Positions 6,151 to 17,771 are shown, numbered from the stretch's first letter. The stretch is DNA of 64,000 bases from an uncultured delta proteobacterium (GCA_963851325.1 CAWKOR010000002.1:709859-773858); one strand, 5' to 3'. Translations and numbers: made by a program. The notes: generated by a model not told the origin, from the sequence alone.

Positions 6151-7209
6151 CTAGTTGTTGTAATTGTTGATGACCGTCACGCCGACATTCTGGAAGGTAT
6201 TCATTTCCTCGAACACCTTGTTGATGCCCGACAGGTTGCAGGTCCCGGTCACCATCTTCTTGGGCGAGATCTTACCCGCCTCCAGCATCTGCAGCATCGC
6301 CGGATAATGCGACGCCTGCATCCCCAACGATGCGATGACCTGCAGCTCCATCGTCACCATGCGATCGATCGGCAATGAAATCTCGCCGCCTTCGGCAGCC
6401 GTGGTCAGCCCGATCTGCAGATGACGTCCCTGCTTGCGCAAGCTCATAATCGCGTTGCGGCAAGTGGCCGCGATGCCGAGCGCGTCGACCGCCACATGCG
6501 CGCCGCCCTTGGTGAGCTCCACCACTGCCGCAACCGCGTCAGTTTTCTTGCCGTTGATGACGTGATTCGCGCCCATCCCCTTGGCGAGTTCCAGCTTGGC
6601 CGAATCGAGATCGATGCCGATGACGTTGGCGCCGACCGCCGCCGCGACGTTGATCGCGGACAAACCGATGCCGCCGCATCCGTACACCGCGACCCATTCG
6701 CCCGGCTTCACCTGGGCGCGATCGACGATGCCGTGAAACGAGGTCATGAAGCGACATCCCATCGAGGCGGCCTCGACGAAGTCGACGCTCTTGGGCAGCG
6801 CCACCAGGTTCAAATCGGCAAACGGAACCGGCACCATCCGTCCGAAGCCACCCGGATACGAGAAGCCCGGGGTCAGCGGCGTCACGCATACGTTGGACTG
6901 GCCGTTGCGACAGTACTCGCAAGTGCCATCGCCCTGGCTGAACGGAACCACCACCCGATCGCCTTTCTTGAAGCCCTTGATGTCTTTGCCGACTTCTTCG
7001 ACGACGCCGCAAAATTCGTGACCGAGAATTGCACCGGGTTGCGCGACCAGTCCCATCCAGTGCCAGTCGCCCGACCATGCGTGCCAATCGGAGCGGCAGA
7101 CACCGTTGGCCTCGACCCTGATCAGCGCGCCATTGGGAGCGCACTCCGGATCGGGCACATCCTGCACCACCAGCGGTTTCTTGGTTCCCTGAAAAACTGC
7201 TGCTTTCAT
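6151..7209 (-). CDS. Zn-dependent alcohol dehydrogenase (MDR family)
   Basis: GVCRSD, GHEFCG, structural Zn CEYC..C, YGCGGIG. Confidence 0.93.
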   Translation of the reverse strand: MKAAVFQGTKKPLVVQDVPDPECAPNGALIRVEANGVCRSDWHAWSGDWHWMGLVAQPGAILGHEFCGVVEEVGKDIKGFKKGDRVVVPFSQGDGTCEYCRNGQSNVCVTPLTPGFSYPGGFGRMVPVPFADLNLVALPKSVDFVEAASMGCRFMTSFHGIVDRAQVKPGEWVAVYGCGGIGLSAINVAAAVGANVIGIDLDSAKLELAKGMGANHVINGKKTDAVAAVVELTKGGAHVAVDALGIAATCRNAIMSLRKQGRHLQIGLTTAAEGGEISLPIDRMVTMELQVIASLGMQASHYPAMLQMLEAGKISPKKMVTGTCNLSGINKVFEEMNTFQNVGVTVINNYNN

Positions 7210-7242: not shown

Positions 7243-8241
7243 CTAACTCATCAATGTCTGCACCGTCTTGGCGAACTCGGCTGGATCCCTGGCGTCGATC
7301 TCGACCGCGTGCAAATCGGCGCCCGCTTTCTCATGCTCGATGATCCGCTCGCGCGCGCCATTGACGTCGCCCACGTAGCCGAGCTGCGACAGCATCTTCT
7401 CCGATACTGCCTCGGTCCCGGCCTTCGATCCGCCGCTGTCCCATGCCTGCTTGATGGTGCGGACTTCGTCTCCGAAGCCGAAGCGCGTGAGCTGCTCGGA
7501 ATAGAAGGTGCCCATCCGCGCCGCGTAAAACGCGATGGTGCCGGCCTGCCCCGCCTTGGCACGATCGACATTCTTCGTGATAACGACGCCGCCCGGCGCC
7601 TTGACCTCGACCGACTGGGGATCGCGTCCGGCGGCTTTTGCGATGGCGTGGAATTCCGAAATCGCTTTGCCGAGCCCCGATACGGGAATCATCACCGGCA
7701 GCCATCCGTCGGCTTTCTGCGCGGTGAACTCGACGCTCTTCTGATTGAGCGACGCGATGAAAATCGGGATGTGCTTGCGGACCGGCTCGAAGCGCATCGT
7801 GAATCCGCGCCCCAGCTTGAACAGCTTGCCGTTATAGTTCAGCGGCGTGCCGGCCATGATCATATTGATGATGTCGACATACTCTTTCATGCGCGTGAGT
7901 GGCGGATTGAACTTCACGCCGTGGAAATGCTCGATGACCTGCGGGCCGCTGGTGCCGAGCCCGATGATCATGCGGCCGTTGGAGAGTTCGTCGAGGGTGC
8001 CGAAGTGCTGCGCGAGCGCGGCCGGCGTACGCGAATAGATGTTCACGATCGAGGTGCCCAGCTTGATCCGCTTCGTGTGCTCTGCCAGCAGCGCCAGTAG
8101 CGTGAAAGCATCGTGGCCCCACGCCTCGGCCACCCACATCGAATCGATACCCGCATCGTCGGCGATCTTCACGCGATCGATCAGCGCCTTGAAGTCGAGC
8201 TTCCCCTGCCAGTTCAGTCCCATGGTCAATTTTCTAGCCAT
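7243..8241 (-). CDS. LLM class flavin-dependent (possibly F420-dependent) oxidoreductase
   Basis: WVAEAWGHDA, LGTSIVNIYSRTPA, GRMIIGLGTSGPQVIE; RBS AAGAGGAGA upstream. Confidence 0.9.
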   Translation of the reverse strand: MARKLTMGLNWQGKLDFKALIDRVKIADDAGIDSMWVAEAWGHDAFTLLALLAEHTKRIKLGTSIVNIYSRTPAALAQHFGTLDELSNGRMIIGLGTSGPQVIEHFHGVKFNPPLTRMKEYVDIINMIMAGTPLNYNGKLFKLGRGFTMRFEPVRKHIPIFIASLNQKSVEFTAQKADGWLPVMIPVSGLGKAISEFHAIAKAAGRDPQSVEVKAPGGVVITKNVDRAKAGQAGTIAFYAARMGTFYSEQLTRFGFGDEVRTIKQAWDSGGSKAGTEAVSEKMLSQLGYVGDVNGARERIIEHEKAGADLHAVEIDARDPAEFAKTVQTLMS

Positions 8242-8262
8242 CAAAATGTTCTCCTCTTAAAT

Positions 8263-8578
8263 ATTCCCTCGGGCTCCGCTTCGCTTCTACAAGAGTTGTC
8301 TGCCCTTCCTTATTCCCTCTCCCTTCAGGGAGAGGGTGGCGCTACTGCGCCGGGTGAGGTCGGGAGCGCCACTCAAATTTCGATTCGGCCCTCAGACAGC
8401 CCGAATGGGCCTTCGCGGGCGCGGCGCTTCGCGCCCCCTTCGGGCCTCATTTTCAAAATCGTTTCTGCGCTTAAAGATTCCCTCGGGCTCCGCTTCGCTC
8501 CTACAGGAGTTGTCTGCCCTTCCTTATTCCCTCTCCCTTCAGGGAGAGGGTGGCGCTACTGCGCCGGGTGAGGTCGGG
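8263..8578. repeat. Two near-identical 102-bp intergenic repeats (8263-8364, 8477-8578) containing REP-like palindromes
   Basis: The copies differ at 2 positions; each carries CCCTCTCCC-TTCA-GGGAGAGGG and GCCGGGTGAGG; the spacer has further GC hairpins. Confidence 0.9.
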
Positions 8579-8603
8579 CTTCATTTTGGAAACCGCGTGG
8601 CGC

Positions 8604-9242
8604 TCAAGCGATCGCGCGCACCCGCTCGTACCATCGCATGAGATTGGGAAACTCCGCCACCTTCGCGAAGTTGCCCGGATTGAGCGACAGGAAGAAAAAC
8701 GGATGGTACAGCGACGCATCGGCCATCGTGAAGTCCTTGCCCAGGAAGAAATCCTGGTTGGCGACCTGCTTATCGATCATCGCGCAATGCAGTTTGAGCG
8801 CGTCCAGATGAGTCGCGGATTGAGCGCGCATCTGAGCGGTGGTCATCCCGATCAGCTTCTCGCGATTGGCCTTGAGCTTCGGGTCACCCGCTCCATCCAG
8901 CAGGTCGGGAATCACCAGAAACAGGATCGAGGGAAACAGCGTGTTGTCGGCCCATTCATCGACGATGTCGCAGAGCCCGCGCGCATCGGCCGGAATCACC
9001 GGACGCTCCGGCACCCGCTTATCGATCCATCGGATGATGTCGGCGGAATTCCATACCACCTCGCCATCCCATTCGATGACCGGCACGCGAGTCCATTGTC
9101 CCTTGGTCAGCGCGAGCAGGTTGGTTTTGTCCTCGAAGTGGCAATCGATCGGGTTCCATTTGATCTTCTTGTAGGTGAGGACCCTTCGCAGTTTTTCAGT
9201 GAATGGTGAGATTGGATATTGATAAAGGTTGAGCGTTCCCAT
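8604..9242 (-). CDS. Glutathione S-transferase family protein
   Basis: YPISPFTEKLR, RVPVI, NSADI and FTMAD motifs. Confidence 0.88.
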   Translation of the reverse strand: MGTLNLYQYPISPFTEKLRRVLTYKKIKWNPIDCHFEDKTNLLALTKGQWTRVPVIEWDGEVVWNSADIIRWIDKRVPERPVIPADARGLCDIVDEWADNTLFPSILFLVIPDLLDGAGDPKLKANREKLIGMTTAQMRAQSATHLDALKLHCAMIDKQVANQDFFLGKDFTMADASLYHPFFFLSLNPGNFAKVAEFPNLMRWYERVRAIA

Positions 9243-9424
9243 GAGCCTCCTGATTGATGCGATGCATCCGAGGTTCGCACATCAGCCCAGCGGGTTGAAG
9301 TGCTGTTTGTTCCTACTCCGCCTGCATCTCGCCGTATGATCGTGGGAGATGGACCGACGCGCCAGATTGCCTCGTGACCGGCCGAGAGAGGGACCTCAGC
9401 TCTGGATTCGGTGTCTGATGCTCT

Positions 9425-10198
9425 TCATCGCAGGTCGCGAGCTTTGGTCATGATGTAGAAGACGTAGCCGTAGGCATCGGAGTACTCGCGAAAGAGATCA
9501 TACTCGCGCGCGATTTCATCGAGGCGCTTTGCGATATCGCGGTCGTCTGCATAGCGGGCGCGCACTTTGCGCAGCCGCGCCTCGGCGGGTCCGTAGTAGT
9601 TGGCCCACCAATCCGCGACCGGCAAAGTGAATGCGCGTACGTCCGTATAACCAGCTTCGCTCGCGATGCGACGATTGGCTTCGAGCGTCTGCATCCCGGG
9701 ATAGTTGGTCGCCCAATAGTCCCGCGCCTCTTGCGGAGGAATTTCGACAAGCCACGTCAGCTCCGACACGACCATCGAGCCACCAGGCCTCAGAAAGCGG
9801 CGGCATCGGTCGAGTCCCGTGGCGAAGCCCATGATGTAGATGGCGCCCTCCGACCAGACGAGGTCGAACTCCTCATCGCTGAAGTTCATGTGAAACATGG
9901 ATTCGCATCGCGTGGTAATCCGCCCCGAAACCCCGGCCGCGGCGGCGCGCTCGACAAGTTCGTTCAGCAAACCTTCGCTTCGATCCAGCGCGACGATTTC
10001 GCCACCGGTTGCACGCGCGAGATCGACGGTTTGCGCGCCCGGGCCGCATCCGACATCGAGGATGCGCGGTCGCGGTGGCAGGTTGGCGACCATCGCAAGC
10101 GCACGCAGCGTGGCTTCCGTCGAGCCCGGACCCTGCCGCGGCAGCCCCTCGGTCAATTCGCGAAACAGGTCGATGGATCTATCTTTGGGCAATAGCAT
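9425..10198 (-). CDS. Class I SAM-dependent methyltransferase
   Basis: LPRQGPGS, ILDVGCGPG, FDLVWSEGAIY, YGYVFY. Confidence 0.9.
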   Translation of the reverse strand: MLLPKDRSIDLFRELTEGLPRQGPGSTEATLRALAMVANLPPRPRILDVGCGPGAQTVDLARATGGEIVALDRSEGLLNELVERAAAAGVSGRITTRCESMFHMNFSDEEFDLVWSEGAIYIMGFATGLDRCRRFLRPGGSMVVSELTWLVEIPPQEARDYWATNYPGMQTLEANRRIASEAGYTDVRAFTLPVADWWANYYGPAEARLRKVRARYADDRDIAKRLDEIAREYDLFREYSDAYGYVFYIMTKARDLR

Positions 10199-10320
10199 TT
10201 CCCGGTCTATGAGGTTGCAGGTGGTTCCGATTCACCGCTAGTAGAAATGTGCTATCATATGGTTGCGGCGCCAGCGATGGTGCCGTCGGTCGTTCAGGAG
10301 TCACCGGAAGCGAGGATGCG

Positions 10321-10646
10321 AAATTACACAAACGAACCCACCGCGGACATCGCGAGCGACGGTCATGACCGCCGCGCGAAGGGTCCTCGAATCAGAGTAC
10401 GAACAGCCTCGAGGTGCAAAAACAAACCCACTGCGGAAAGCGTCGTCGATATTCCCGAAATTACGAAACGAAGCCAAATTGTTGAGGAAAATCAACGCAT
10501 GTTTGAATCGCGAACCGGAGAAAGGGCCAGTTGAGGGAACCCACGCCGGCATCAGGCATAGTGGAAAAACAAACCCACTGAAGGCATCGGAGCCGAGGTA
10601 TCATGAGCCGCTACCCGAAGGCGAATTCGCTAAAACAAACCCACTA
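10321..10646 (+). repeat. Five dispersed copies of an AAAC(G/A)AA(C/G)CCA motif in a poorly coding intergenic stretch
   Basis: Copies near 10328, 10418, 10464, 10565 and 10632, all in the same orientation with variable spacers. Confidence 0.75.
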
Positions 10647-10718
10647 AGTTCAGGTTCGACGGACGATTTTTCTTGCTGCTAATTACCGACATGATGTCGA
10701 TAGGCGCGGCGCCGAAGC

Positions 10719-12335
10719 CTATTGCCAGCGCGACACCTTCAGGTTGACCGGGATGTCATCGCGCACCAGTTGCCGGATGTGGCAGCCGCGCTCGGCGACC
10801 TCGACCAGCCGATGCAGCTTGTCCTCGTTCTCGGAGCTTTCAACTTTAAGCTCTACTTCAATTTCCTTGACGTGCCCCTTCGCGTTCGCCCGCGCGACGA
10901 CCGAGGCCCGTCCGACATTCAGCTTGCGCACCCGAGCCCCCACTCGCAGCGACATCAGCAGGCATGATCCGAGAGCGCCGAGAAAGGTGGTAACCGGGTC
11001 GGGAGCGGACTCATCTTCGGCCGACGAACTCCACGCCATCGAACCGTTCGTGATGCGGGTGCGAAGACTGTCGTCGATCGCCTCGACAACGACCTCGCGC
11101 GGACGCGCCGCTGTCGCCTCCACCGCCTTGGCGACGCCGGCGAAGTCAGCCGCCTCAAGCAATGCTTTAACTTTCGTGGTGAAGTGCGAAGCCGCCGCAC
11201 CGTCGATCCCGCGATGGTCATACGCGATCGCGATGTGCATTGCGGGACGCACCTCGGGACGGCCATCGATCGCGAGGACCTCGTCGCGAATCGCACCCAC
11301 GAACATCAGCGCGACCTGCGGCGCGAAGATCACCGGCGTGCCGTTCTCGACGCCATACGCGCCGAGATTGGAGACCGTGAACGTCGCGCCTTCGAGGTCG
11401 GTCGGTCGAAGCCGCCGATTGCGCGCGCGCTCGGCGACCTCGGCGACACGCGCGCCGAGCGCCGGAAGCTCGAGGCGGTCAGCATCGTGGATGACCGGCA
11501 CGATGAGACCCTCGGGCGTGTCGACCGCGACGCCTAAATTGACCTGATCGAAGATGAGCATCTCGCCATTTTCGTAGTTGGCGTTGATGCGCGGGTTGTC
11601 CTTCAGCGCCTGCACCGTGGCCGCGAGGATCAGATCGGTAATGCCGATCCTCGCGCCGCGATCATTGATCGATAAGCGCGCGGCAATCGCGCGGCTCATG
11701 TCGACCCGCACCATCTGTACGAAATGCGGAATCGCATTCCAGCTCGCGGTCAGGTTGCGCGCGCCGACCGCCTGGATGCGAGTCAGCTTCTCGCGCCGCG
11801 ACGGCGTCAGCGCAGCGCTGGCGTTCGCCGCAGGAGCGGCAGCGATTGGCGCCGCGGGTTGCTCGGACGCGCGTTTCACATCGTCCTCGGTAACCATGCC
11901 ATCGGCGCCGGTCCCCGCAACATTCGCGAGGTCGATGCCTCGCTCGGCGGCCAGCCGCTTCGCGCGCGGCGATGCGATCACGCGCTTCGAGGCGATGCGC
12001 TGTGGCGACGCGGTTTCGATCTTCGCAGTCGAAACGTTGGTCGAGGTTGTCGCGGCCGGGCTTGCGCCGCCATCGAACTCGGCAGGCACCGCCTCACCCT
12101 CGGCGGTGATGACGCCCAGCGCGCCTCCGACCGGAACCACCAGGCCTTCGGTGGCGATCAACTTCGCGAACACGCCGGCGGTCGGCGCTTCGACTTCAAC
12201 CTGCGCCTTGTCGGTCTCGACGGTGAGGATCGATTCGCCTTCGCGAATCTTGTCGCCGGGCCGCTTGTGCCATTGAATAACGGTTCCCTCGGTCATCGTG
12301 TGACCGAGTTTCGGCATCTGGATCACGAACGCCAT
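10719..12335 (-). CDS. 2-oxoacid/acetoin dehydrogenase E2 (lipoyl, PSBD, acyltransferase) fused to a C-terminal OsmC-like domain
   Basis: ETDK43 lipoyl site, ASPRAKRLA, DHRGIDG; tail PDPVTTFLGALGSC458...VAERGC518HI. Confidence 0.88.
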   Translation of the reverse strand: MAFVIQMPKLGHTMTEGTVIQWHKRPGDKIREGESILTVETDKAQVEVEAPTAGVFAKLIATEGLVVPVGGALGVITAEGEAVPAEFDGGASPAATTSTNVSTAKIETASPQRIASKRVIASPRAKRLAAERGIDLANVAGTGADGMVTEDDVKRASEQPAAPIAAAPAANASAALTPSRREKLTRIQAVGARNLTASWNAIPHFVQMVRVDMSRAIAARLSINDRGARIGITDLILAATVQALKDNPRINANYENGEMLIFDQVNLGVAVDTPEGLIVPVIHDADRLELPALGARVAEVAERARNRRLRPTDLEGATFTVSNLGAYGVENGTPVIFAPQVALMFVGAIRDEVLAIDGRPEVRPAMHIAIAYDHRGIDGAAASHFTTKVKALLEAADFAGVAKAVEATAARPREVVVEAIDDSLRTRITNGSMAWSSSAEDESAPDPVTTFLGALGSCLLMSLRVGARVRKLNVGRASVVARANAKGHVKEIEVELKVESSENEDKLHRLVEVAERGCHIRQLVRDDIPVNLKVSRWQ

Positions 12336-12348
12336 AATTTAACTATCG

Positions 12349-13323
12349 CTATTTCAGCAACTCGCGGCAGGCCTGGTAGATTTTCTCCTCACTCGGGATG
12401 ACGAACTTCTCGAGGTTGCCGCCGGTCGGCACCGGCACGTCAGGCATCGCGACCCGCCGCAGGGGCGCATCGAGATATTCCAGCGCTTCTTCGAGTAGCA
12501 TCGCACCGATCTCGGCACCGATGCCCAAGGTTTTGTAACTTTCCTCGGCGACCACGATCTTGCCGGTCTTCTTCACCGAATCGATTATCGCGCCGCGATC
12601 GAACGGCACCAGCGAGCGAGGATCGATCACTTCGATACTGTGGCCGTCCGCGGCGAGGCGCTCGGCGGCTTTGAGAGCCTTCGGCACCATGTTGGAAATC
12701 GCGACCAGCGTGAGCGCATCACCCTCGCGGCGAATCGCGGCCTTGCCCAGCGGCACCAGATGATCGCCGCCTTCGGGCACCTCGCCCTTGGTCGCGTACA
12801 ACAGTTTATGCTCGAAGAACAGCACCGGGTTGTCGTCGCGAATCGCACTCTTGAGCAGACCCTTGGCATCGGCGGGCGTCGAGGGCGATACAATCTTGAG
12901 TCCCGGCGCGTGCATGAAAAACGCCTCGGGACATTGGCCATGCTCCGGCCCTACCCCGGCCGCGCCAGAGGGGCATCGGATCACGAGCGGAATCGTGTAC
13001 GCGCCACCGTGGCCATAGCGCCACATGCCCGCCTTGAGCACCACCTCGTCGGCCGCGGTGAAAAGGAAGTCGGCGAATTGCAACTCGACGATCGGACGCA
13101 GCCCGGTGAGCGCAGCGCCAACGCCCGCGCCAACCAGCGCATTTTCGGAAATCGGCGTGTCGAACACGCGCTCCTCGCCGAACTCTTCCTTGAGGCCCGC
13201 GGTAAGCCGAAAGATGCCGCCGAAATTCGCGACGTCCTCGCCATATAGAATGACCGATCGGTCGCGCCGCATCTCCTCGGCGATGCCCTCGTTGATCGCT
13301 TGAGCGTAGGTAATGGTTCGCAT
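12349..13323 (-). CDS. 2-oxoacid/acetoin dehydrogenase E1 beta subunit
   Basis: MRTITYAQAINEG, GEDV, DTPISE, QFADF, DAKGLLKSAIRDDNPV. Confidence 0.93.
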   Translation of the reverse strand: MRTITYAQAINEGIAEEMRRDRSVILYGEDVANFGGIFRLTAGLKEEFGEERVFDTPISENALVGAGVGAALTGLRPIVELQFADFLFTAADEVVLKAGMWRYGHGGAYTIPLVIRCPSGAAGVGPEHGQCPEAFFMHAPGLKIVSPSTPADAKGLLKSAIRDDNPVLFFEHKLLYATKGEVPEGGDHLVPLGKAAIRREGDALTLVAISNMVPKALKAAERLAADGHSIEVIDPRSLVPFDRGAIIDSVKKTGKIVVAEESYKTLGIGAEIGAMLLEEALEYLDAPLRRVAMPDVPVPTGGNLEKFVIPSEEKIYQACRELLK

Positions 13324-13325
13324 GA

Positions 13326-14291
13326 TTATGACACCGTCTCGGCGAAGACATCCTCGAGCGCCGACTCCGGCTTGGGGAACGGCTGCGCGCGCATGAACTC
13401 GCAGGCCTTGTCGATCGCGCTTTTCGCCTCCGCCTCGAACTGCGCCTTGAGCGAATCGTTGAGGACCTTCGCTTCGGTCAGCTTCTGCTCGTAACGAGGT
13501 AGCGGATCCTGGCGCCATCGCATCTCGACTTCCTCGCGCGATCGATAACTCTCAGGATCGCCAATCCAGTGTCCCCATAGCCGATACGTCTTGGCCTCGA
13601 CCAGCGACGGTCCGGCGCCGGAGCGCGCACGCTTCACCGCCTCGGCAACCGCGTCATACACCGCTTCGGGATCGTTGCCATCGACGATGACGCCGGGGAT
13701 GTCGTAACCTGCCGCGCGCGAGGCGATGTCCTTCGCGGCGGTGGAGCGCTCGGTCGGCATCGATACTGCCCATCCGTTGTTCTCGCACAGGAACACAACC
13801 GGCAGCTTTCGTACTGCGCAGAAATTCAGGCTCTCGTGGAAGGTTCCGCGATTCGAGGTCCCGTCGCCGAAGAAGCACAGCACCACCTGGTCGCCACCCT
13901 TCACCTTGATCGAGAGTCCAGCACCGGTCGCGATGGGAAAGCATCCGCCCAGCGTGCCGCTCTCGCCGAGCACGCCCAGCTTCGGGTACACCACCCGCAT
14001 CACGCCGCCCTTGCCGCGATTGGTCCCGCCCTCGCGGCACGCGAGGTCGCACAGGACCTTCTCCAGCGGGACGCCGCGCGCGACCCAGTAGGCCACGCCG
14101 CGATGCGCGTAGAGCAGGTAGTCGTCGGGCCGCAGCGTCGCGATCGCCGCCACCTGCAGCGCTTCCTGGCCGACGCCGGGATGCATGAAGCCTCCGACCT
14201 GGCCGGCCTTGATCAGCTCGGCGACGCGCTCTTCGAGCCGCCGGCTCAACACGATTTTGCGATAGATCTCGAGCTGGAGCTTTTGATCCAT
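13326..14291 (-). CDS. 2-oxoacid/acetoin dehydrogenase E1 alpha subunit (ThDP-dependent)
   Basis: GQEA, HRG, GDG..N...ENN ThDP motif, KTYRLWGH; RBS AGGAGG before ATG 14291. Confidence 0.92.
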   Translation of the reverse strand: MDQKLQLEIYRKIVLSRRLEERVAELIKAGQVGGFMHPGVGQEALQVAAIATLRPDDYLLYAHRGVAYWVARGVPLEKVLCDLACREGGTNRGKGGVMRVVYPKLGVLGESGTLGGCFPIATGAGLSIKVKGGDQVVLCFFGDGTSNRGTFHESLNFCAVRKLPVVFLCENNGWAVSMPTERSTAAKDIASRAAGYDIPGVIVDGNDPEAVYDAVAEAVKRARSGAGPSLVEAKTYRLWGHWIGDPESYRSREEVEMRWRQDPLPRYEQKLTEAKVLNDSLKAQFEAEAKSAIDKACEFMRAQPFPKPESALEDVFAETVS

Positions 14292-14473
14292 ATGCCGATC
14301 CTCCTGCACACCGACCGGGTTGCGTTGATCCTCGAAACCTAGCGAGAAGGAGCAGTTTCTACAAACCGTTCATCAGGCGAAAACATACGGTGGCTTCCGT
14401 TTTTCGTGGTTTAGTTCTATGAAGGATTGGTAAGCCAACAGCTTCGCTCCGCTCTTCTTTCAGGAGGTGAGCC

Positions 14474-16231
14474 ATGAGCGCCAACCAGTCCGATCCCACT
14501 TACAAAGTGACGGCCCAACGCCATCTCCCGATGCGTACTCGGGACGGCGTTACTCTCTACGCCGACGTTTACCGGCCCGACGCACCCGGAAAATTTCCGG
14601 TGCTGGTTTGCCGCACCCCGTACGACAAGAGCCAGGAGCTCGCGCTAACCGAAAAGGATTATTTTCCGCCTCGCGGTTATGTGCTGGTGGTGCAGGACAC
14701 CCGCGGACGCTTCAGCTCCGAAGGCGACTTTTACCCGTTCATCCACGAGGCGAACGACGGTTACGACACCATCGAATGGGCGGCCGAGTTGCCATGGTCA
14801 AACGGCGTCGTCGGCACCGTAGGACAATCCTACCTGGGACTGGTGCAATACTACGCCGCCCCGACGCGACCGCCGCATCTGAAAGCGATGTGCCCTGTTT
14901 CGGGACCGGTGACGTATTTCCAAAACTGCGTCTACCGGCGCGGCGTCTTCGAGCTGGGATGGATGCTGACCTACTTCACCTTCATGGCGCGCAACACGCT
15001 GGCGCGCAAGGGAATTTACGATCGCGAGGGGCCGATCCTCGACGCCTACCTGTCGCGGCCCGAGATTCCACTCTCCGCGCTCAAGGCTGAGGAGTTCGCG
15101 CATCTTCCGCTTTCCGACTGGGCTGAACGCCTCGGCAAGGGCGCGCCCTACTTCGCCGATTACCTGCGCCATTGGACGGATGACGGCTACTGGGCCGCGA
15201 CCGATCTGCGCACCAGATGCGAGACCGTCGCTGCGCCCATCCTCCATGTCGGCTCGTGGTACGACGCTTTTCAGTACGACACGCTGGCGATGTACACCGC
15301 CATGCGCGACAACGCCGCAACCCCGGAAGCGCGGCGCGGGCAGAAACTCCTCATGGGACCGTGGGCGCATCTACTGCCGTATGCGGTTCCGACTTCGCGC
15401 GGAACCGGCGACATCGATTTCGGTCCCGAAGCGAAGATCGAACTCCATGCCATCCAACTGCGATGGTTCGATCAGCATCTAAAGGGCCTCGCCACTGGAA
15501 TGCTGGAAGAGCCGCCGGTGCGCATTTTCGTGATGGGCGAGAATCGGTGGCGCAACGAATCCGAGTGGCCGCTCAAGCGCACCAACTACACCAAGGTTTT
15601 TCTCCACAGTCGTGGCAGCGCCAATTCGCTCAGCGGCGACGGGTCGCTGTCGCTCGCTGCGCCCAGCAGCGACGAGGCTCCCGATCATTACATCTATGAT
15701 CCAGCAAATCCGGTTCCGACTCGCGGCGGCACCACGCTCGGATTGCCGCCCGGCGTCTTCGATCAGCGCGAAATCGAGCATCGCAAGGATGTGCTCGTAT
15801 ATACCGGAGAGCCGCTCGCTGAGCCGCTGGAAATCACCGGGCCTATTTCGATGAAACTGTTCGCCGCATCATCGGCACCCGACACCGACTTCATGGCGAA
15901 GCTGATTGACGTGCGCCCCGACGGCTACGCACACAACCTCGCCGAGGGCGTGGTGCGCGCGCGCTTTCGCGAGTCGCTTTCGGATCCGTCATTGATCGCA
16001 CCAGGCAAGATTTACGAGTACAGCATCGATATGTGGGCCACCAGCCATGTTTTCAAACGCGGCCACCAGGTGCGGATCGAGATCACCTCGAGCAACTTCC
16101 CGCGCTACGATCGCAACCCGAACACCGGCAATGATTTCGGTGTCGATCGCGAATTGCGCGCGGCCCAGCAAACGGTTTTCCATGCGCCGGGAAGCTCGTC
16201 GCACCTCGTGCTGCCGGTGATCCCGCGATAG
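14474..16231 (+). CDS. CocE/NonD family serine hydrolase
   Basis: RDGVTLYADVYRP, RTPY, GQSYLG nucleophile, GPWAH, SSNFPRYDRN. Confidence 0.92.
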   Translation: MSANQSDPTYKVTAQRHLPMRTRDGVTLYADVYRPDAPGKFPVLVCRTPYDKSQELALTEKDYFPPRGYVLVVQDTRGRFSSEGDFYPFIHEANDGYDTIEWAAELPWSNGVVGTVGQSYLGLVQYYAAPTRPPHLKAMCPVSGPVTYFQNCVYRRGVFELGWMLTYFTFMARNTLARKGIYDREGPILDAYLSRPEIPLSALKAEEFAHLPLSDWAERLGKGAPYFADYLRHWTDDGYWAATDLRTRCETVAAPILHVGSWYDAFQYDTLAMYTAMRDNAATPEARRGQKLLMGPWAHLLPYAVPTSRGTGDIDFGPEAKIELHAIQLRWFDQHLKGLATGMLEEPPVRIFVMGENRWRNESEWPLKRTNYTKVFLHSRGSANSLSGDGSLSLAAPSSDEAPDHYIYDPANPVPTRGGTTLGLPPGVFDQREIEHRKDVLVYTGEPLAEPLEITGPISMKLFAASSAPDTDFMAKLIDVRPDGYAHNLAEGVVRARFRESLSDPSLIAPGKIYEYSIDMWATSHVFKRGHQVRIEITSSNFPRYDRNPNTGNDFGVDRELRAAQQTVFHAPGSSSHLVLPVIPR

Positions 16232-16280: not shown

Positions 16281-17117
16281 ATGAAGAAGCAAACACTACT
16301 CGTTGCGGCTTTGGCCACGGTTTTGTTTGGCGCCTTTGCGATCTCGGGTGCGCTTGCTCATGACATGGAGGGGATGGACATGAGCAATGATTCCGCCGCC
16401 TCCGGCGACGCAGGCTCCGGGGCGGTCGGCGGGATGGGTAAGCACCTGAGCATGGGCGCGCACATGACGATGACCAAGTTGCGCGCTCCGACGGCCGAAG
16501 ATTCCGCTCGCGCCGCGGTGATCCTGCAGACCATGCGCGAGCAACTTTCTAAGTACCAGGATTACAAAGTCGCCGAGGCCGACGGCTACGAACCGTTTAT
16601 GGAATCGGTGCCGCAGGACGTTTACCACTTCTCCAGCAAACCCGCGACGCAGGCCGAATACCTCGGCGATGTGGACCTCAAGCGACCGGGCTCGCTGCTC
16701 TATGAGAAGAAAACTTTCGGCGGATACAAACTGGTCGGCGCAATGTATTCCGCGCCGCCCACTTACACCCCCGAGCAGCTCGACCAGATAATTCCGCTCG
16801 GCCTGGCGCGATGGCACGCGCACACCAACATCTGCCTGCCGGCGGGACTCACCGAAGCGGACGTGATGGAAGGTCGCATCATGCCGGCCCATCACCGCAT
16901 GTCAGCGGAGGACCGGGGCACCTTCCACCGTAGCGACCCGCGCCTCGGATATTTCGCGGATCCGCGCTTCGGGTTCACTGGAACGATCTGGCAAGCCGGC
17001 GAATGCGAAGCGGTGGGCGGCACTTTCCACCCGCAGATTTTCGGCTGGATGGTGCATGTCTATCCGTTCGCGGGCACCGATGACGTGAAGGTAGCGTTCG
17101 GAATGGACGCGCCGTAG
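16281..17117 (+). CDS. Secreted His/Met-rich hypothetical protein
   Basis: Signal peptide, HDMEGMDM, WHAHTNIC, GWMVHVYPF; coding-like codon use. Confidence 0.75.
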   Translation: MKKQTLLVAALATVLFGAFAISGALAHDMEGMDMSNDSAASGDAGSGAVGGMGKHLSMGAHMTMTKLRAPTAEDSARAAVILQTMREQLSKYQDYKVAEADGYEPFMESVPQDVYHFSSKPATQAEYLGDVDLKRPGSLLYEKKTFGGYKLVGAMYSAPPTYTPEQLDQIIPLGLARWHAHTNICLPAGLTEADVMEGRIMPAHHRMSAEDRGTFHRSDPRLGYFADPRFGFTGTIWQAGECEAVGGTFHPQIFGWMVHVYPFAGTDDVKVAFGMDAP

Positions 17118-17126
17118 CGTCGGCGC

Positions 17127-17771
17127 TCAGTTCACTGGTGTGATCCGATACGCGCAGCGGCGGGCGCCCGCGAGAATATGATCGATGCGCTCGACGCTCA
17201 CTTCGTCGCCCAGCACAGTTGAAAAAAGCCGCAGCTCCTCGCGACAGAGGCCTTGGCATGCAGTCGCGGCCGCACAAATCGGACAATGATTCTCGATCAG
17301 CAGGAATGAGCCGTCGCGCTGCCGTGCGGCTTCCGCCATATAGCCCTGCTCGGCGCGAATCTTCGCCAGCGCGCTGACGCGCGCCTCGAGCGACTTGCCG
17401 GCGGCGCGCAGCCGCTCTCCGTACGCCTTGGTCTGCAGCCGGGTTCGCTCCGCTATCAAACGCTCGATTCCGCGCTCACCGAAAGTCGCGCGAATTATCG
17501 CGAGCATCTCGACCGTCAGTTCGGCGTGCGAATCCGGAAATCGCGCCTGCGCACTTTCCGTGAGGCGCCAGATCCTTGCGGGACGGCCAACCTTGCGCCG
17601 TTCATCCTCGTAGGTGACGAGCCCACTGTCGCGCAGCGCGTAGAGGTGCTGGCGAACCGCCATCGCGGTCACCGCCAGCCGCTTCGCGATCTGGTTGGCG
17701 GCTTGAGGTCCCTTGCTTTTCAACTGCAACAGGATTCGATCAGATGCGCGATCGGACTCCATGCGAATCAT
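17127..17771 (-). CDS. Winged-HTH transcriptional regulator, SufR-like with a Cys-rich C-terminus
   Basis: AVRQHL...GRP..WRLT, ENHCPICAAATACQGLC..E, RRCAY. Confidence 0.88.
   Translation of the reverse strand: MIRMESDRASDRILLQLKSKGPQAANQIAKRLAVTAMAVRQHLYALRDSGLVTYEDERRKVGRPARIWRLTESAQARFPDSHAELTVEMLAIIRATFGERGIERLIAERTRLQTKAYGERLRAAGKSLEARVSALAKIRAEQGYMAEAARQRDGSFLLIENHCPICAAATACQGLCREELRLFSTVLGDEVSVERIDHILAGARRCAYRITPVN

Follow-up and report, generated by a model that had tools for sequence, protein, structure and literature searches.

Does an OsmC-like domain appended to the E2 subunit of a 2-oxoacid dehydrogenase complex allow that complex to pass electrons to peroxides and, if so, does it act in place of dihydrolipoamide dehydrogenase (E3) or beside it? 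The question is raised by a cluster of E1α, E1β and E2 genes in a 64,000-nt stretch of DNA (C2:709859-773858; hereafter the window), for which the original prediction proposed a peroxidase driven by a 2-oxoacid or acetoin, in which the OsmC domain reoxidizes the lipoyl arm with hydroperoxide and thereby bypasses, or competes with, E3 and NAD+.

ORF calling yielded three tightly packed reading frames on the minus strand, encoding E1α, E1β and E2; the Pfam domains agree with these calls and the cluster is real. The E1α subunit (13326..14309, minus strand; 327 aa from a GTG start) is PDH-like and thiamine-diphosphate dependent. It matches Pfam E1_dh (E = 1.3e-79), scores 294.5 bits against NCBIfam TIGR03182, under the cut-off of 393.85, and has mitochondrial-type PDH E1α as the nearest solved chains (E = 2e-54). 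Position 14291, where the cluster was originally taken to end, is an in-frame ATG at residue 7 of this protein. The E1β gene (12349..13323, minus strand) encodes 324 aa when counted from an internal ATG 2 nt past the E1α stop, which is also the length of the orthologues in related genomes; the product carries the Transket_pyr and Transketolase_C domains and exceeds the cut-off of NF006667 (PDH E1 beta subfamily; 348.9 vs 321 bits). The E2::OsmC gene (10719..12335, minus strand; 538 aa plus stop) starts 13 nt beyond the E1β stop, and its four Pfam domains share a single open frame. The order E1α–E1β–E2::OsmC is kept in 11 of the 12 fused loci, the twelfth of which ends at a contig edge.

Within the fusion protein, the lipoyl domain (residues 5–76; 12108..12323, minus strand; Pfam Biotin_lipoyl, E = 5e-18) carries Lys43 in the motif ETDKA (codon 12207-12209). 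It is followed by the peripheral-subunit (E3/E1) binding domain (residues 119–154; 11874..11981, minus strand; Pfam E3_binding, E = 9.2e-14, 51.8 bits vs a cut-off of 23.7) and by the acyltransferase catalytic domain (residues 179–396; 11148..11801, minus strand; Pfam 2-oxoacid_dh, E = 4.2e-68, 229.7 bits) with DHRGIDG at residues 373–379. As originally claimed, both the lipoyl Lys43 and this motif are intact: Lys43, Asp373, His374, Arg375, Asp378 and Gly379 are each found in 103 of 103 full-length fusions, and the core residues of the subunit-binding domain are invariant or near-invariant in the same set. None of the NCBIfam E2 equivalogs (PDH, OGDH, BCKDH) scores above its cut-off, the best being TIGR01349 with 279 vs 445 bits; the closest solved chains are PDH E2p. 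Solved E2 chains match up to about residue 394–400, and between the E2-matched region and the first strand of the OsmC model lies an Ala-rich linker (residues 397–412; 11100..11147, minus strand) whose sequence differs among relatives. Judged from its sequence, the E2 part is probably a working core subunit of a PDH-like complex, with lipoyl arm, binding domain and CoA acyltransferase intact, to which an OsmC domain has been added.

Analysis of the distribution of this architecture showed that the fusion is real and conserved. A domain-architecture search found 2-oxoacid_dh combined with OsmC in 119 of the 120 listed homologues, and among 48 representatives of this OsmC clade that were scanned with Pfam, 32 have the domain joined to an E2 catalytic domain. 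Lost-stop merging of two neighbouring genes, whether an error of assembly or of annotation, would fit the frame breaks or truncated forms of the related loci L072, L108 and L124. The 103 full-length fusions, however, come from independent assemblies, so that the fusion is not unique to this one; the lipoyl, catalytic and OsmC parts share a single frame in 24 of 80 named Binatia loci; and the same architecture is found in RefSeq proteins of cultured haloarchaea (Halorubrum, Halomarina, Halovalidus and Halolamina) as well as in Candidatus Binatia. We therefore reject an artefact, whose probability is practically negligible. In alignment A1, the lipoyl-Lys column holds Lys in 43 rows, all of which are fusions (21 diverged ones are listed with Lys). 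The lipoyl Lys is missing from seven of seven short proteins that join a lipoyl-like domain to OsmC, and that architecture is thus no proof of reduction by lipoate in cis. A further 34 of the 80 Binatia loci have a stand-alone OsmC gene without E1 or E2. An orthologous E1β was not found in four genomes with stand-alone OsmC, where the best matches are 52–53% identical, at the level of paralogues. Evidently, then, the domain can work without its own E2.

The C-terminal part of the protein (residues 413–538; 10722..11099, minus strand) is an OsmC-fold, two-Cys domain. Pfam OsmC (PF02566) matches residues 441–533 over model positions 2–100 of 100 (E = 1.5e-14, 54.6 bits vs a cut-off of 27.5). The suspicion that the domain is trimmed proved wrong: the AlphaFold2 model of residues 403–538 (mean pLDDT 95.8) has the complete OsmC topology and superposes on the 140-residue Ta0195 (2onf) with a TM of 0.84. 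Foldseek returned 64 PDB matches at E ≤ 0.001, the best 48 of which are all OsmC/Ohr-family or structural-genomics chains; the OsmC/Ohr matches span TM 0.63–0.85, with 0.84–0.85 for 2onf and 1lql. The two Cys residues are as originally described, Cys458 in LGALGSC (codon 10962-10964) and Cys518 in AERGC (codon 10782-10784), 60 residues apart; according to passages of PMC5384416, two Cys about 60 residues apart are a hallmark of the OsmC/Ohr family. Their conservation was borne out as well: both occur in every one of the 103 full-length fusions and, in a wide alignment of 99 sequences down to about 19% identity, Cys458 is kept in 99 and Cys518 in 98. Some relatives have an in-frame TGA at the position of Cys458, as does locus L014, exactly there and with the second Cys retained; this TGA probably encodes selenocysteine.

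The original prediction left open whether the domain has the catalytic Arg and Glu of Ohr, and profile alignment found neither at its homologous position. The Arg (Arg19 in XfOhr, in the loop between strands 1 and 2) aligns with the Asp421–Asp422 region; Arg413, found in 77 of 95 sequences and placed inside the modelled dimer interface, is not its homologue. At the position of the Glu (Glu51 in XfOhr), ten residues ahead of the first Cys, the domain has Val448, as judged by profile alignment to V. cholerae Ohr, in which the Glu of the NPE motif stands opposite this residue; 84 of 99 relatives likewise have Val there. Ohr and OsmC have a conserved Glu at the same position, and proteins without this Arg and Glu are uncharacterized, according to the available passages of PMC5384416; with Val448, the domain falls outside the OsmC subfamily in the strict sense, which is marked by this Glu together with an Arg at a position of its own. 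It also scores far under the cut-offs of the NCBIfam models for Ohr (TIGR03561; 16.6 vs 88.85 bits), SACOL1771 and seleno-OsmC, the nearest named model being NF041052, OsmC-related (seleno)protein (52.2 vs 95 bits). On these sequence comparisons, the domain is a member of a poorly studied third OsmC group. Since the Arg and Glu are missing, peroxidase activity is something that we infer. A homodimer model of the OsmC part scored 0.92, against 0.00 for the best of three controls, a pass that may reflect likeness to solved OsmC/Ohr dimers; among proteins of solved structure, 20 of 30 same-chain pairs reach this mark, as does 1 of 23 single chains. The dimer runs gave contact agreement of at least 92% and a partner pLDDT of at least 89, again in a model that may owe its pass to the solved dimers.

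As originally stated, there is no E3 gene in the cluster or anywhere in the window. Nor was an E3 homologue found in 20 OsmC-containing stretches of up to 20 kb, of which 12 have the fusion, or in 80 further Binatia loci with flanks of up to 6 kb on each side, and within the Binatia loci examined the fused E2 is always accompanied by E1αβ. These observations favour a strict version of the proposal, in which the complex lacks E3 and hydroperoxide is the obligatory terminal oxidant of the lipoyl arm, making the whole a 2-oxoacid:hydroperoxide oxidoreductase. Yet the caveat that E3 is often encoded elsewhere turned out to be apt: the genome has three E3-like genes outside the window (Pyr_redox_dim matches at C2:815297, C1:3390343 and C1:1546536). 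Four of its five E2 genes have no adjacent E3, so that E3-less clusters are the rule here and the absence of E3 from the window says little. The subunit-binding domain is conserved, although in α-β type complexes this domain also binds E1, and on a plasmid of Haloarcula ordinaria the genes for OsmC, E2::OsmC and lpdA adjoin one another, with no E1 within 8 kb of the fused E2 and the nearest E1α about 30 kb off. A catabolic complex limited by peroxide would, moreover, be very slow. The argument from the missing E3 thus finds no support here, and we regard the strict version as quite improbable.

On balance, the OsmC domain is likely to be a built-in lipoyl-dependent thiol peroxidase, an added electron outlet beside E3 and not a replacement for it. 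Given a conserved fusion, invariant Cys residues and an intact lipoyl Lys and catalytic His, a redox link between lipoyl arm and OsmC domain is the natural reading, and available passages of PMC5384416 and PMC5962072 describe reduction of Ohr and OsmC by lipoylated proteins. The idea that the domain reoxidizes the lipoyl arm is supported in part, by the conserved fusion and by the Cys pair, Lys43 and the catalytic His, residues that all 103 sequences keep; its extension to a bypass, drawn from the missing E3, is not. In the mechanism that we propose, the OsmC domains would pair as the usual OsmC/Ohr homodimer, and a hydroperoxide would oxidize Cys458, which would then form a disulfide with Cys518. 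This disulfide would be reduced by dihydrolipoyl arms of the same E2 assembly, and the arms could be recharged in either of two ways: E1αβ of the operon could act on a 2-oxoacid, the acyl group then passing to CoA, or NADH could supply the electrons by way of a reverse-running E3 whose gene lies elsewhere. We infer all three elements of this scheme, the lipoyl arm as reductant, the peroxide as oxidant and the source of the electrons; the fusion probably lets the complex pass electrons to peroxides. Counting against a peroxidase are the missing Arg and Glu, the low scores with the NCBIfam Ohr and seleno-OsmC models, the stand-alone OsmC genes and the neighbouring glutathione S-transferase (GST) gene.

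The neighbourhood of the operon deserves attention in this respect. The GST-like gene (8604..9242, minus strand; Pfam GST_N_3 and GST_C_2) has a conserved place immediately behind OsmC in Binataceae, in both fused and stand-alone loci: it was seen in at least 13 of 24 complete fused loci and in 33 of 34 Binataceae-type stand-alone loci, and in six of eight fused f1 loci it lies on the OsmC side, 4–30 nt past the stop in five. In the window, a SAM-methyltransferase gene (9425..10198, minus strand; Pfam Methyltransf_25) stands between E2::OsmC and GST; it is flanked by a 520-nt spacer containing dispersed repeats, and no homologue of it was matched across 80 related loci. Two further neighbours are conserved by synteny, a luciferase-like (LLM class, F420-type) oxidoreductase (7243..8244, minus strand; Pfam Bac_luciferase), which comes closest to the NCBIfam models of F420-dependent LLM families, each of them under cut-off, and a Zn-dependent alcohol dehydrogenase (6151..7209, minus strand; Pfam ADH_N and ADH_zinc_N). 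In Binataceae, GST, F420-type oxidoreductase and alcohol dehydrogenase usually come after OsmC, even where E1 and E2 are missing. One protein, P0104, is a single OsmC::GST chain that shares 68% identity with the GST of the window over its GST half. As the most constant Binataceae neighbour, once fused to OsmC, GST hints at a different partner or substrate.

Such a partner is central to another explanation, in which the domain would be a lipoyl-coupled dithiol–disulfide oxidoreductase whose oxidant is not a peroxide but a disulfide, a glutathione conjugate or another electrophile, processed jointly with the neighbouring GST, F420-type oxidoreductase and alcohol dehydrogenase, so that the E2 arm would power a small catabolic or detoxification pathway. 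The recurrence of these three genes after OsmC in most Binataceae loci, with or without E1 and E2, the OsmC::GST protein, the absence of the Arg–Glu pair that confers peroxide reactivity on Ohr and the closest solved folds (Ta0195, MPN625 and YhfA), whose entry titles assign no activity, are all consistent with it. It is nonetheless doubtful: the GST neighbourhood is missing around the fusions of Binatia family f4 and of haloarchaea; fold, Cys pair and Cys spacing all correspond to the peroxidase family, for which the available passages of PMC5384416 and PMC5962072 give no other activity; and the TGA found at the first Cys position suits a rapidly reacting redox nucleophile and is silent on the oxidant. 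A regulatory or structural domain, that is, a redox switch on the activity or assembly of E2 under oxidative stress, or a dimerizing module that alters how E2 trimers join, with no net catalytic electron flow, seems quite improbable to us. The E2 C-terminus makes the trimer–trimer contact, and an OsmC part modelled as a tight dimer must affect the geometry of the core, and here, too, the missing Arg and Glu would be in keeping; but an invariant Cys pair, together with relatives that carry the TGA, speaks for catalysis, and the stand-alone gene persists after loss of E1 and E2, when no E2 is left to regulate.

A broader version of the peroxidase reading, distinctly speculative and rather unlikely, would make E2::OsmC complexes modular electron routers built on one swinging arm. 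In Binatia, E1αβ would load the arm from a 2-oxoacid and the OsmC dimer would unload it onto hydroperoxide or another oxidant, so that the complex could run, without E3 or NAD+, as a 2-oxoacid:hydroperoxide oxidoreductase; in haloarchaea, the fusion would be an LpdA-paired NADH peroxidase. If true, this would be the first defined physiological role for the third OsmC group lacking Arg and Glu, and it would put the C-terminal dimer at the trimer–trimer contact of the E2 core.

Comparison with solved proteins places the domain closest to third-group OsmC-like proteins: Ta0195 (2onf), MPN625 (1lql), YhfA (1ml8) and 3cje are the nearest folds (TM 0.77–0.85), and 3cje and 2onf also rank among the top sequence matches. 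These proteins share the Cys pair and likewise lack the Glu, but they are stand-alone proteins of about 130–170 residues, with no assigned function and none fused to E2. The best profile match to the OsmC clade is PDB 9wo1, a 400-residue chain named 'Osmotically inducible protein C' (E = 4.8e-26, residues 262–390), on which we found no paper. There, as in the fusion, the OsmC domain is C-terminal in a larger protein; its N-terminal 260 residues are not E2, given that the E2 part of the window protein did not match 9wo1.

With the Ohr/OsmC peroxidases, the domain shares the OsmC fold, a peroxidatic-type Cys within the central helix and another Cys 60 residues on, and the model suggests the same tight homodimer; lipoylated proteins are the known reductant of this family. 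It differs from Ohr in lacking the catalytic Arg and Glu at the homologous positions, and Ohr chains are only 12–21% identical to it (TM 0.63–0.75). In 2010, Cussiol reportedly found that Ohr of Xylella fastidiosa is reduced by a lipoylated E2 together with Lpd. In Ohr systems, peroxidase and E2 are separate proteins, whereas here they form one chain. OsmC of Trichomonas vaginalis is said (in work by Nyvltova in 2016) to reduce peroxides with a lipoylated H protein and L protein. It resembles the present domain in lacking the canonical Arg and Glu and in having a lipoyl protein as reported donor, although, unlike in the fusion, the two are separate. According to a passage of PMC5384416, this Arg/Glu-less TvOsmC was inactive in the authors' assay and active in that of another laboratory.

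The haloarchaeal gene arrangement has its own counterpart: the Haloarcula cluster of OsmC, E2::OsmC and lpdA follows the logic of the Lpd–DlaT–AhpD–AhpC NADH peroxidase of Mycobacterium tuberculosis, in which a peroxidase draws on the lipoyl arm of a PDH E2 and NADH drives E3 backwards. The M. tuberculosis system differs in working through AhpD as adaptor and AhpC as peroxiredoxin, neither of which has a fold related to OsmC, and in keeping all of its components as separate proteins.

In the window, the gene for E2::OsmC (10719-12335, minus strand) belongs to a tightly packed three-gene set with those for the 2-oxoacid dehydrogenase subunits E1alpha (13326-14309, minus strand) and E1beta (12349-13323, minus strand). 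The E1beta ATG lies 2 nt beyond the E1alpha stop, and E2::OsmC starts 13 nt beyond the E1beta stop. The 538-aa fusion protein has Pfam matches above the cut-offs to Biotin_lipoyl (residues 5-76), E3_binding (119-154), 2-oxoacid_dh (179-396) and OsmC (441-533; 54.6 bits against a cut-off of 27.5). The residues named in the original prediction are all in place, with K43 in ETDKA, DHRGIDG at 373-379, C458 in LGALGSC and C518 in AERGC, and the E2 chemistry is intact. The nearest solved chains of E1 and E2 are pyruvate-dehydrogenase-like, and no solved E2 chain reaches past about residue 400 of E2::OsmC. With the exception of the PDH E1beta subfamily model, E1 and E2 fall under all NCBIfam equivalog cut-offs. 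A promoter and terminator scan of 8200-14700 gave 2 and 6 sites (1.5 and 5.8 expected), that is, no signal, and an Rfam scan of 8000-14800 gave zero matches.

As the original prediction had proposed looking for, the combination of an E2 catalytic domain with OsmC recurs in other proteins. Residues 400-538, searched against proteins of 295-942 aa, had 147 matches, and 119 of the 120 listed homologues contain both 2-oxoacid_dh and OsmC, the sole exception being P0104, which consists of OsmC and GST. The listed fusion homologues come from sources named Candidatus Binataceae or Binatus and are labelled in the databases simply as E2. All 103 fusion proteins with 500 aa or more have C458 and C518, and likewise K43, D373, H374, R375, D378 and G379; conservation of the subunit-binding domain is strong. 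Selection acts on both halves of the fusion.

When 1.84 billion representatives were searched exhaustively with the OsmC domain alone, 98 matched at E<=0.001. A Pfam scan of 48 of them, chosen as the longer proteins and the best of the short, found an E2 catalytic domain with OsmC in 32, a Biotin_lipoyl-type domain with OsmC in 7, OsmC alone in 8 and neither domain in 1. This wider scan includes haloarchaeal fusions; named members of the clade include Halovalidus salilacus/Natrialbaceae, Halomarina ordinaria, Halorubrum sp. 48-1-W, Halolamina, Haloferacaceae and Candidatus Binatia. Within a sample of the window genome's class, a domain match was found in 123 of 401 genomes, a tally that counts in G504 and G635, two genomes flagged as unpublished. 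By family, the matches are in 40 of 94 genomes of the window's own family (f1), 53 of 55 of family f4, 17 of 27 of f106 and 8 of 63 of f6. In a sample of the wider phylum, just 4 of 301 genomes have a match and all four belong to the same class. The fused gene is present in 12 of 20 fetched stretches (each up to 20 kb); in 11 of these the order is E1alpha-E1beta-E2::OsmC, and a contig end cuts the twelfth. The conservation of the fusion rules out a lost stop codon or an assembly artefact, and we give an artefactual origin of E2::OsmC virtually no chance. In a tree of the OsmC domain (134 columns, 118 rows), 51 of 111 inner branches are unresolved, so that the number of fusion events cannot be counted. 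Its three subclades comprise haloarchaeal fusions intermixed with forms that lack the lipoyl Lys; f4 fusions; and f1 fusions with nested stand-alone forms, plus f4 stand-alone forms.

The OsmC domain had been described as trimmed, which proved wrong: the AlphaFold2 model of residues 403-538 (mean pLDDT 95.8) has the complete OsmC fold, with three strands, a long helix that carries C458, two strands, two helices flanking C518 and a final strand. Ta0195 (2onf, TM 0.84), YhfA (1ml8, TM 0.77) and MPN625 (1lql, TM 0.85) take the top Foldseek ranks, and Ohr and OsmC proper rank lower (TM 0.63-0.75). Taken singly, the domain sequence has scarcely a match among solved chains (best E 0.0015). A 52-sequence profile has its best match in 9wo1, a 400-residue chain titled OsmC (E 4.8e-26), followed by 3cje, 2opl, 2onf and then Ohr (3eer, E 5.6e-15). 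In the profile alignment to Vibrio cholerae Ohr, V448 (Val in 84 of 99 relatives) faces the Glu of the NPE motif and the D421-D422 region faces the Ohr Arg. According to passages in two papers, the Ohr/OsmC catalytic triad consists of the peroxidatic Cys, Arg and Glu, and OsmC-type proteins without this Arg and Glu form a third, uncharacterised group (PMC5384416, PMC5962072). Because the triad Glu and Arg are missing at the aligned positions, the window domain, as judged from its sequence, is a member of the OsmC superfamily that lies outside both the Ohr and the strict OsmC subfamilies. Beyond the Cys pair, a wide alignment has conserved R413 (77/95), W435 (70/99), P447 (97/99) and R470 (75/98) and, immediately ahead of C518, E515 (72/99) and R516 (73/99). 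The only other OsmC-family gene of the genome (G000:C1:3452905-3453201; L004 1480-1974, minus strand) encodes a 164-aa protein which, in contrast to the fused domain, has a Glu ten residues ahead of the first Cys.

Two copies of the OsmC domain were modelled as a symmetric dimer with a score of 0.92, against 0.00 for the best of three controls, a result that may reflect only likeness to solved OsmC/Ohr dimers; of proteins with solved structures, 20 of 30 that are pairs of one chain reach this score mark, as does 1 of 23 single chains. Contact agreement between runs was at least 92% and partner pLDDT at least 89. The modelled interface includes the C458 helix from one copy and, from the other, the first strand with R413. 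E2 cores assemble via their C-termini. Since the extra, putatively dimerising domain is attached exactly at this end, the fusion raises a structural question about core assembly.

In L014, a stand-alone OsmC relative of family f6 (G291:C113), an in-frame TGA lies exactly at the position aligned with C458 (GLSLAF*LLTQLSR versus GALGSCLLMSLR), and the second Cys of the OsmC domain is retained. Exactly one in-frame TGA was also found in seven further matches of the 401-genome class sample, the placement at residue level being that of L014 alone; stand-alone relatives with one in-frame TGA include those in genomes G472, G624, G592, G428, G646 and G548. The nearest NCBIfam model of the window OsmC domain is an OsmC-related (seleno)protein, with a score under the cut-off. 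The TGA at the first redox Cys in L014 probably marks a selenocysteine form of this OsmC clade, and we count the TGA-bearing relative and the nearest (seleno)protein model as evidence for a putative catalytic Cys pair.

In Binataceae loci, with or without E1 and E2, the genes that come after the OsmC part encode GST, an LLM-class (F420-type) oxidoreductase and a Zn alcohol dehydrogenase (ADH). In stand-alone loci the OsmC and GST genes have an 8-nt overlap or a 3-nt gap, and the public protein P0104 (350 aa) holds both in one chain, its GST half being 68% identical to the window GST (8604-9242). Thus, the GST-LLM-ADH synteny and P0104 give the OsmC domain a second constant partner. GST is on the OsmC side in six of the eight fused f1 loci, five of which have a gap of 4-30 nt. 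In the window, a methyltransferase gene (9425-10198) and repeat-bearing spacers separate E2::OsmC from GST. For this methyltransferase the 80 related loci gave no homologue, and it therefore appears to have entered the operon as a lineage-specific insertion. In the 520-nt spacer between it and the E2::OsmC stop (10199-10718) there is a further dispersed repeat, partly matched at 21 other places in the genome. The GST-LLM spacer contains a 116-nt direct repeat in two copies that are 96% identical (8249-8364 and 8463-8578). The element is a dispersed intergenic repeat, as a core of some 56 nt turns up at about 20 further sites in the genome. Beyond the other end of the cluster (16281-17771) are genes for a 278-aa protein without a Pfam match and an ArsR-type regulator (best NCBIfam match SufR, under the cut-off). 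Both adjoin the OsmC gene in stand-alone loci too, and the regulator could provide redox-responsive control of the module.

The loci with and without E1 and E2 were compared in 80 named loci, out of 161 confirmed, that were found from a narrower alignment. In 24 of the 80, the lipoyl, catalytic and OsmC parts are in one frame; in 7 the catalytic tail alone is in frame (3 apparent frame breaks, 2 contig-end cuts and 2 remnants); 34 have a stand-alone OsmC gene without E1/E2, and 15 a more distant stand-alone type. In 33 of the 34, OsmC is accompanied by GST, LLM and then, where the contig extends, ADH; L093 has LLM and ADH only. The stand-alone OsmC genes of genus g3 were considered as a split form of the operon, which was ruled out as there is no E1/E2 within 10 kb. 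For E1beta, four genomes with stand-alone OsmC have best hits of 52-53% identity, compared with 50-51% for the window genome's own paralogues and 82-94% (f1) or 64-65% (f4) for orthologues in fused genomes. These four genomes have no orthologous E1beta, and thus the OsmC domain can outlive its E2. The two remnant loci, L074 and L111, retain in frame ahead of OsmC only the final 40-70 residues of the catalytic domain of E2, with an E1alpha fragment just upstream, which suggests deletion of the E1-E2 module from a fused ancestor. In L124, a very close relative with a 100% identical E1alpha, the OsmC match ends after about 77 residues and is out of frame with E2, and the GST, LLM and ADH genes are found upstream in opposite orientation; this could be an assembly frame error or a rearranged locus.

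Seven two-domain proteins of 216-258 aa (P0126, P0132, P0134, P0135, P0145, P0170 and P0195) combine a lipoyl-like domain with OsmC. They were considered as a second Rosetta stone for reduction by lipoate and rejected, because none of the seven retains the lipoyl Lys, its column holding E, Q, A, G, G, Q and H. The Lys is present in 43 rows, every one of them a fusion protein from the searches, with 21 diverged full-length ones among them. The short proteins cannot carry lipoate and therefore give no evidence for reduction in cis; they may be decayed E2::OsmC remnants or may retain the domain for docking.

The original prediction had taken the missing E3 (dihydrolipoamide dehydrogenase) as a sign that the OsmC domain bypasses or competes with it. 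There is indeed no E3 among the window genes. The genome has three E3-like, five E1alpha and five E2 genes, and E3 (814208-815659) adjoins just one E2 (C2:812764-814179). The other four E2 genes, E2::OsmC among them, have no adjacent E3, and therefore its absence from the cluster carries no signal. No E3 homologue was found in the 20 stretches of up to 20 kb (blastp against the genome's own E3, E<=1e-6), and no E3 in the 80 named loci with flanks of up to 6 kb per side. In the cultured haloarchaeon Haloarcula ordinaria ZS-22-S1, a locus on a 335-kb plasmid (NZ_CP119790.1, 7471-11267; L145) encodes a 141-aa OsmC family protein, a 583-aa E2 with lipoyl, E3-binding, catalytic and OsmC domains (Pfam) and, adjoining it, the E3 gene lpdA. 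No E1 was found within 8 kb, the plasmid's only E1alpha being about 30 kb away, so that this cluster of OsmC, E2::OsmC and lpdA without an adjacent E1 is the mirror image of the Binatia operon. It is consistent with a route from NADH through E3 and the lipoyl arm to OsmC, in a gene context known from this single plasmid record; the 80 related loci are all from Binatia-type or other uncultured MAGs. The fusion and the conserved Cys pair of the original prediction stand, and its argument from the missing E3 does not.

On balance we lean towards E2::OsmC being a putative lipoyl-coupled two-Cys peroxidase tethered to its own reductant, with an outlet that adds to E3 and does not replace it. As to the electron path and the oxidant, we infer that the lipoyl arm would be loaded either by the operon E1 with a 2-oxoacid or by E3 with NADH, and that the OsmC domain would serve as an extra electron outlet of the complex beside E3. 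A strictly E3-less, peroxide-driven complex would agree with the absence of E3 from the window; with that absence being the rule in the genome and lpdA next to the Haloarcula fusion, such a complex is improbable. The constant GST partner and the missing Ohr Arg and Glu would suit a non-peroxide oxidant handled together with the GST module, which we consider unlikely beside the peroxidase-type fold and Cys pair. A regulatory or assembly role of the OsmC domain, to which the modelled dimer at the core-assembly end is pertinent, appears quite doubtful beside a Cys pair found in every full-length fusion.

If peroxides can take the electrons of the lipoyl arm, the cost of peroxide detoxification would fall directly on central 2-oxoacid metabolism, and the dehydrogenase complex could turn over without NAD+. 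A conserved fusion of OsmC to an intact E2 that occurs both in a bacterial class and among cultured haloarchaea is evidence from nature for a joint function of the two. It bears on how tightly OsmC and E2 are coupled in cells and on the role of the large third OsmC group without Arg and Glu, and a single protein that holds both reductant and acceptor makes the coupling directly testable. Our literature searches found no description of an E2::OsmC fusion, although supplementary tables (e.g. Table S1 of PMC5384416) might list such architectures. In the known Ohr/OsmC systems, peroxidase and E2 are separate proteins. Lipoylated E2 reduces Ohr and OsmC in vitro, and what is new here is the covalent fusion of the two as a variant of that principle.
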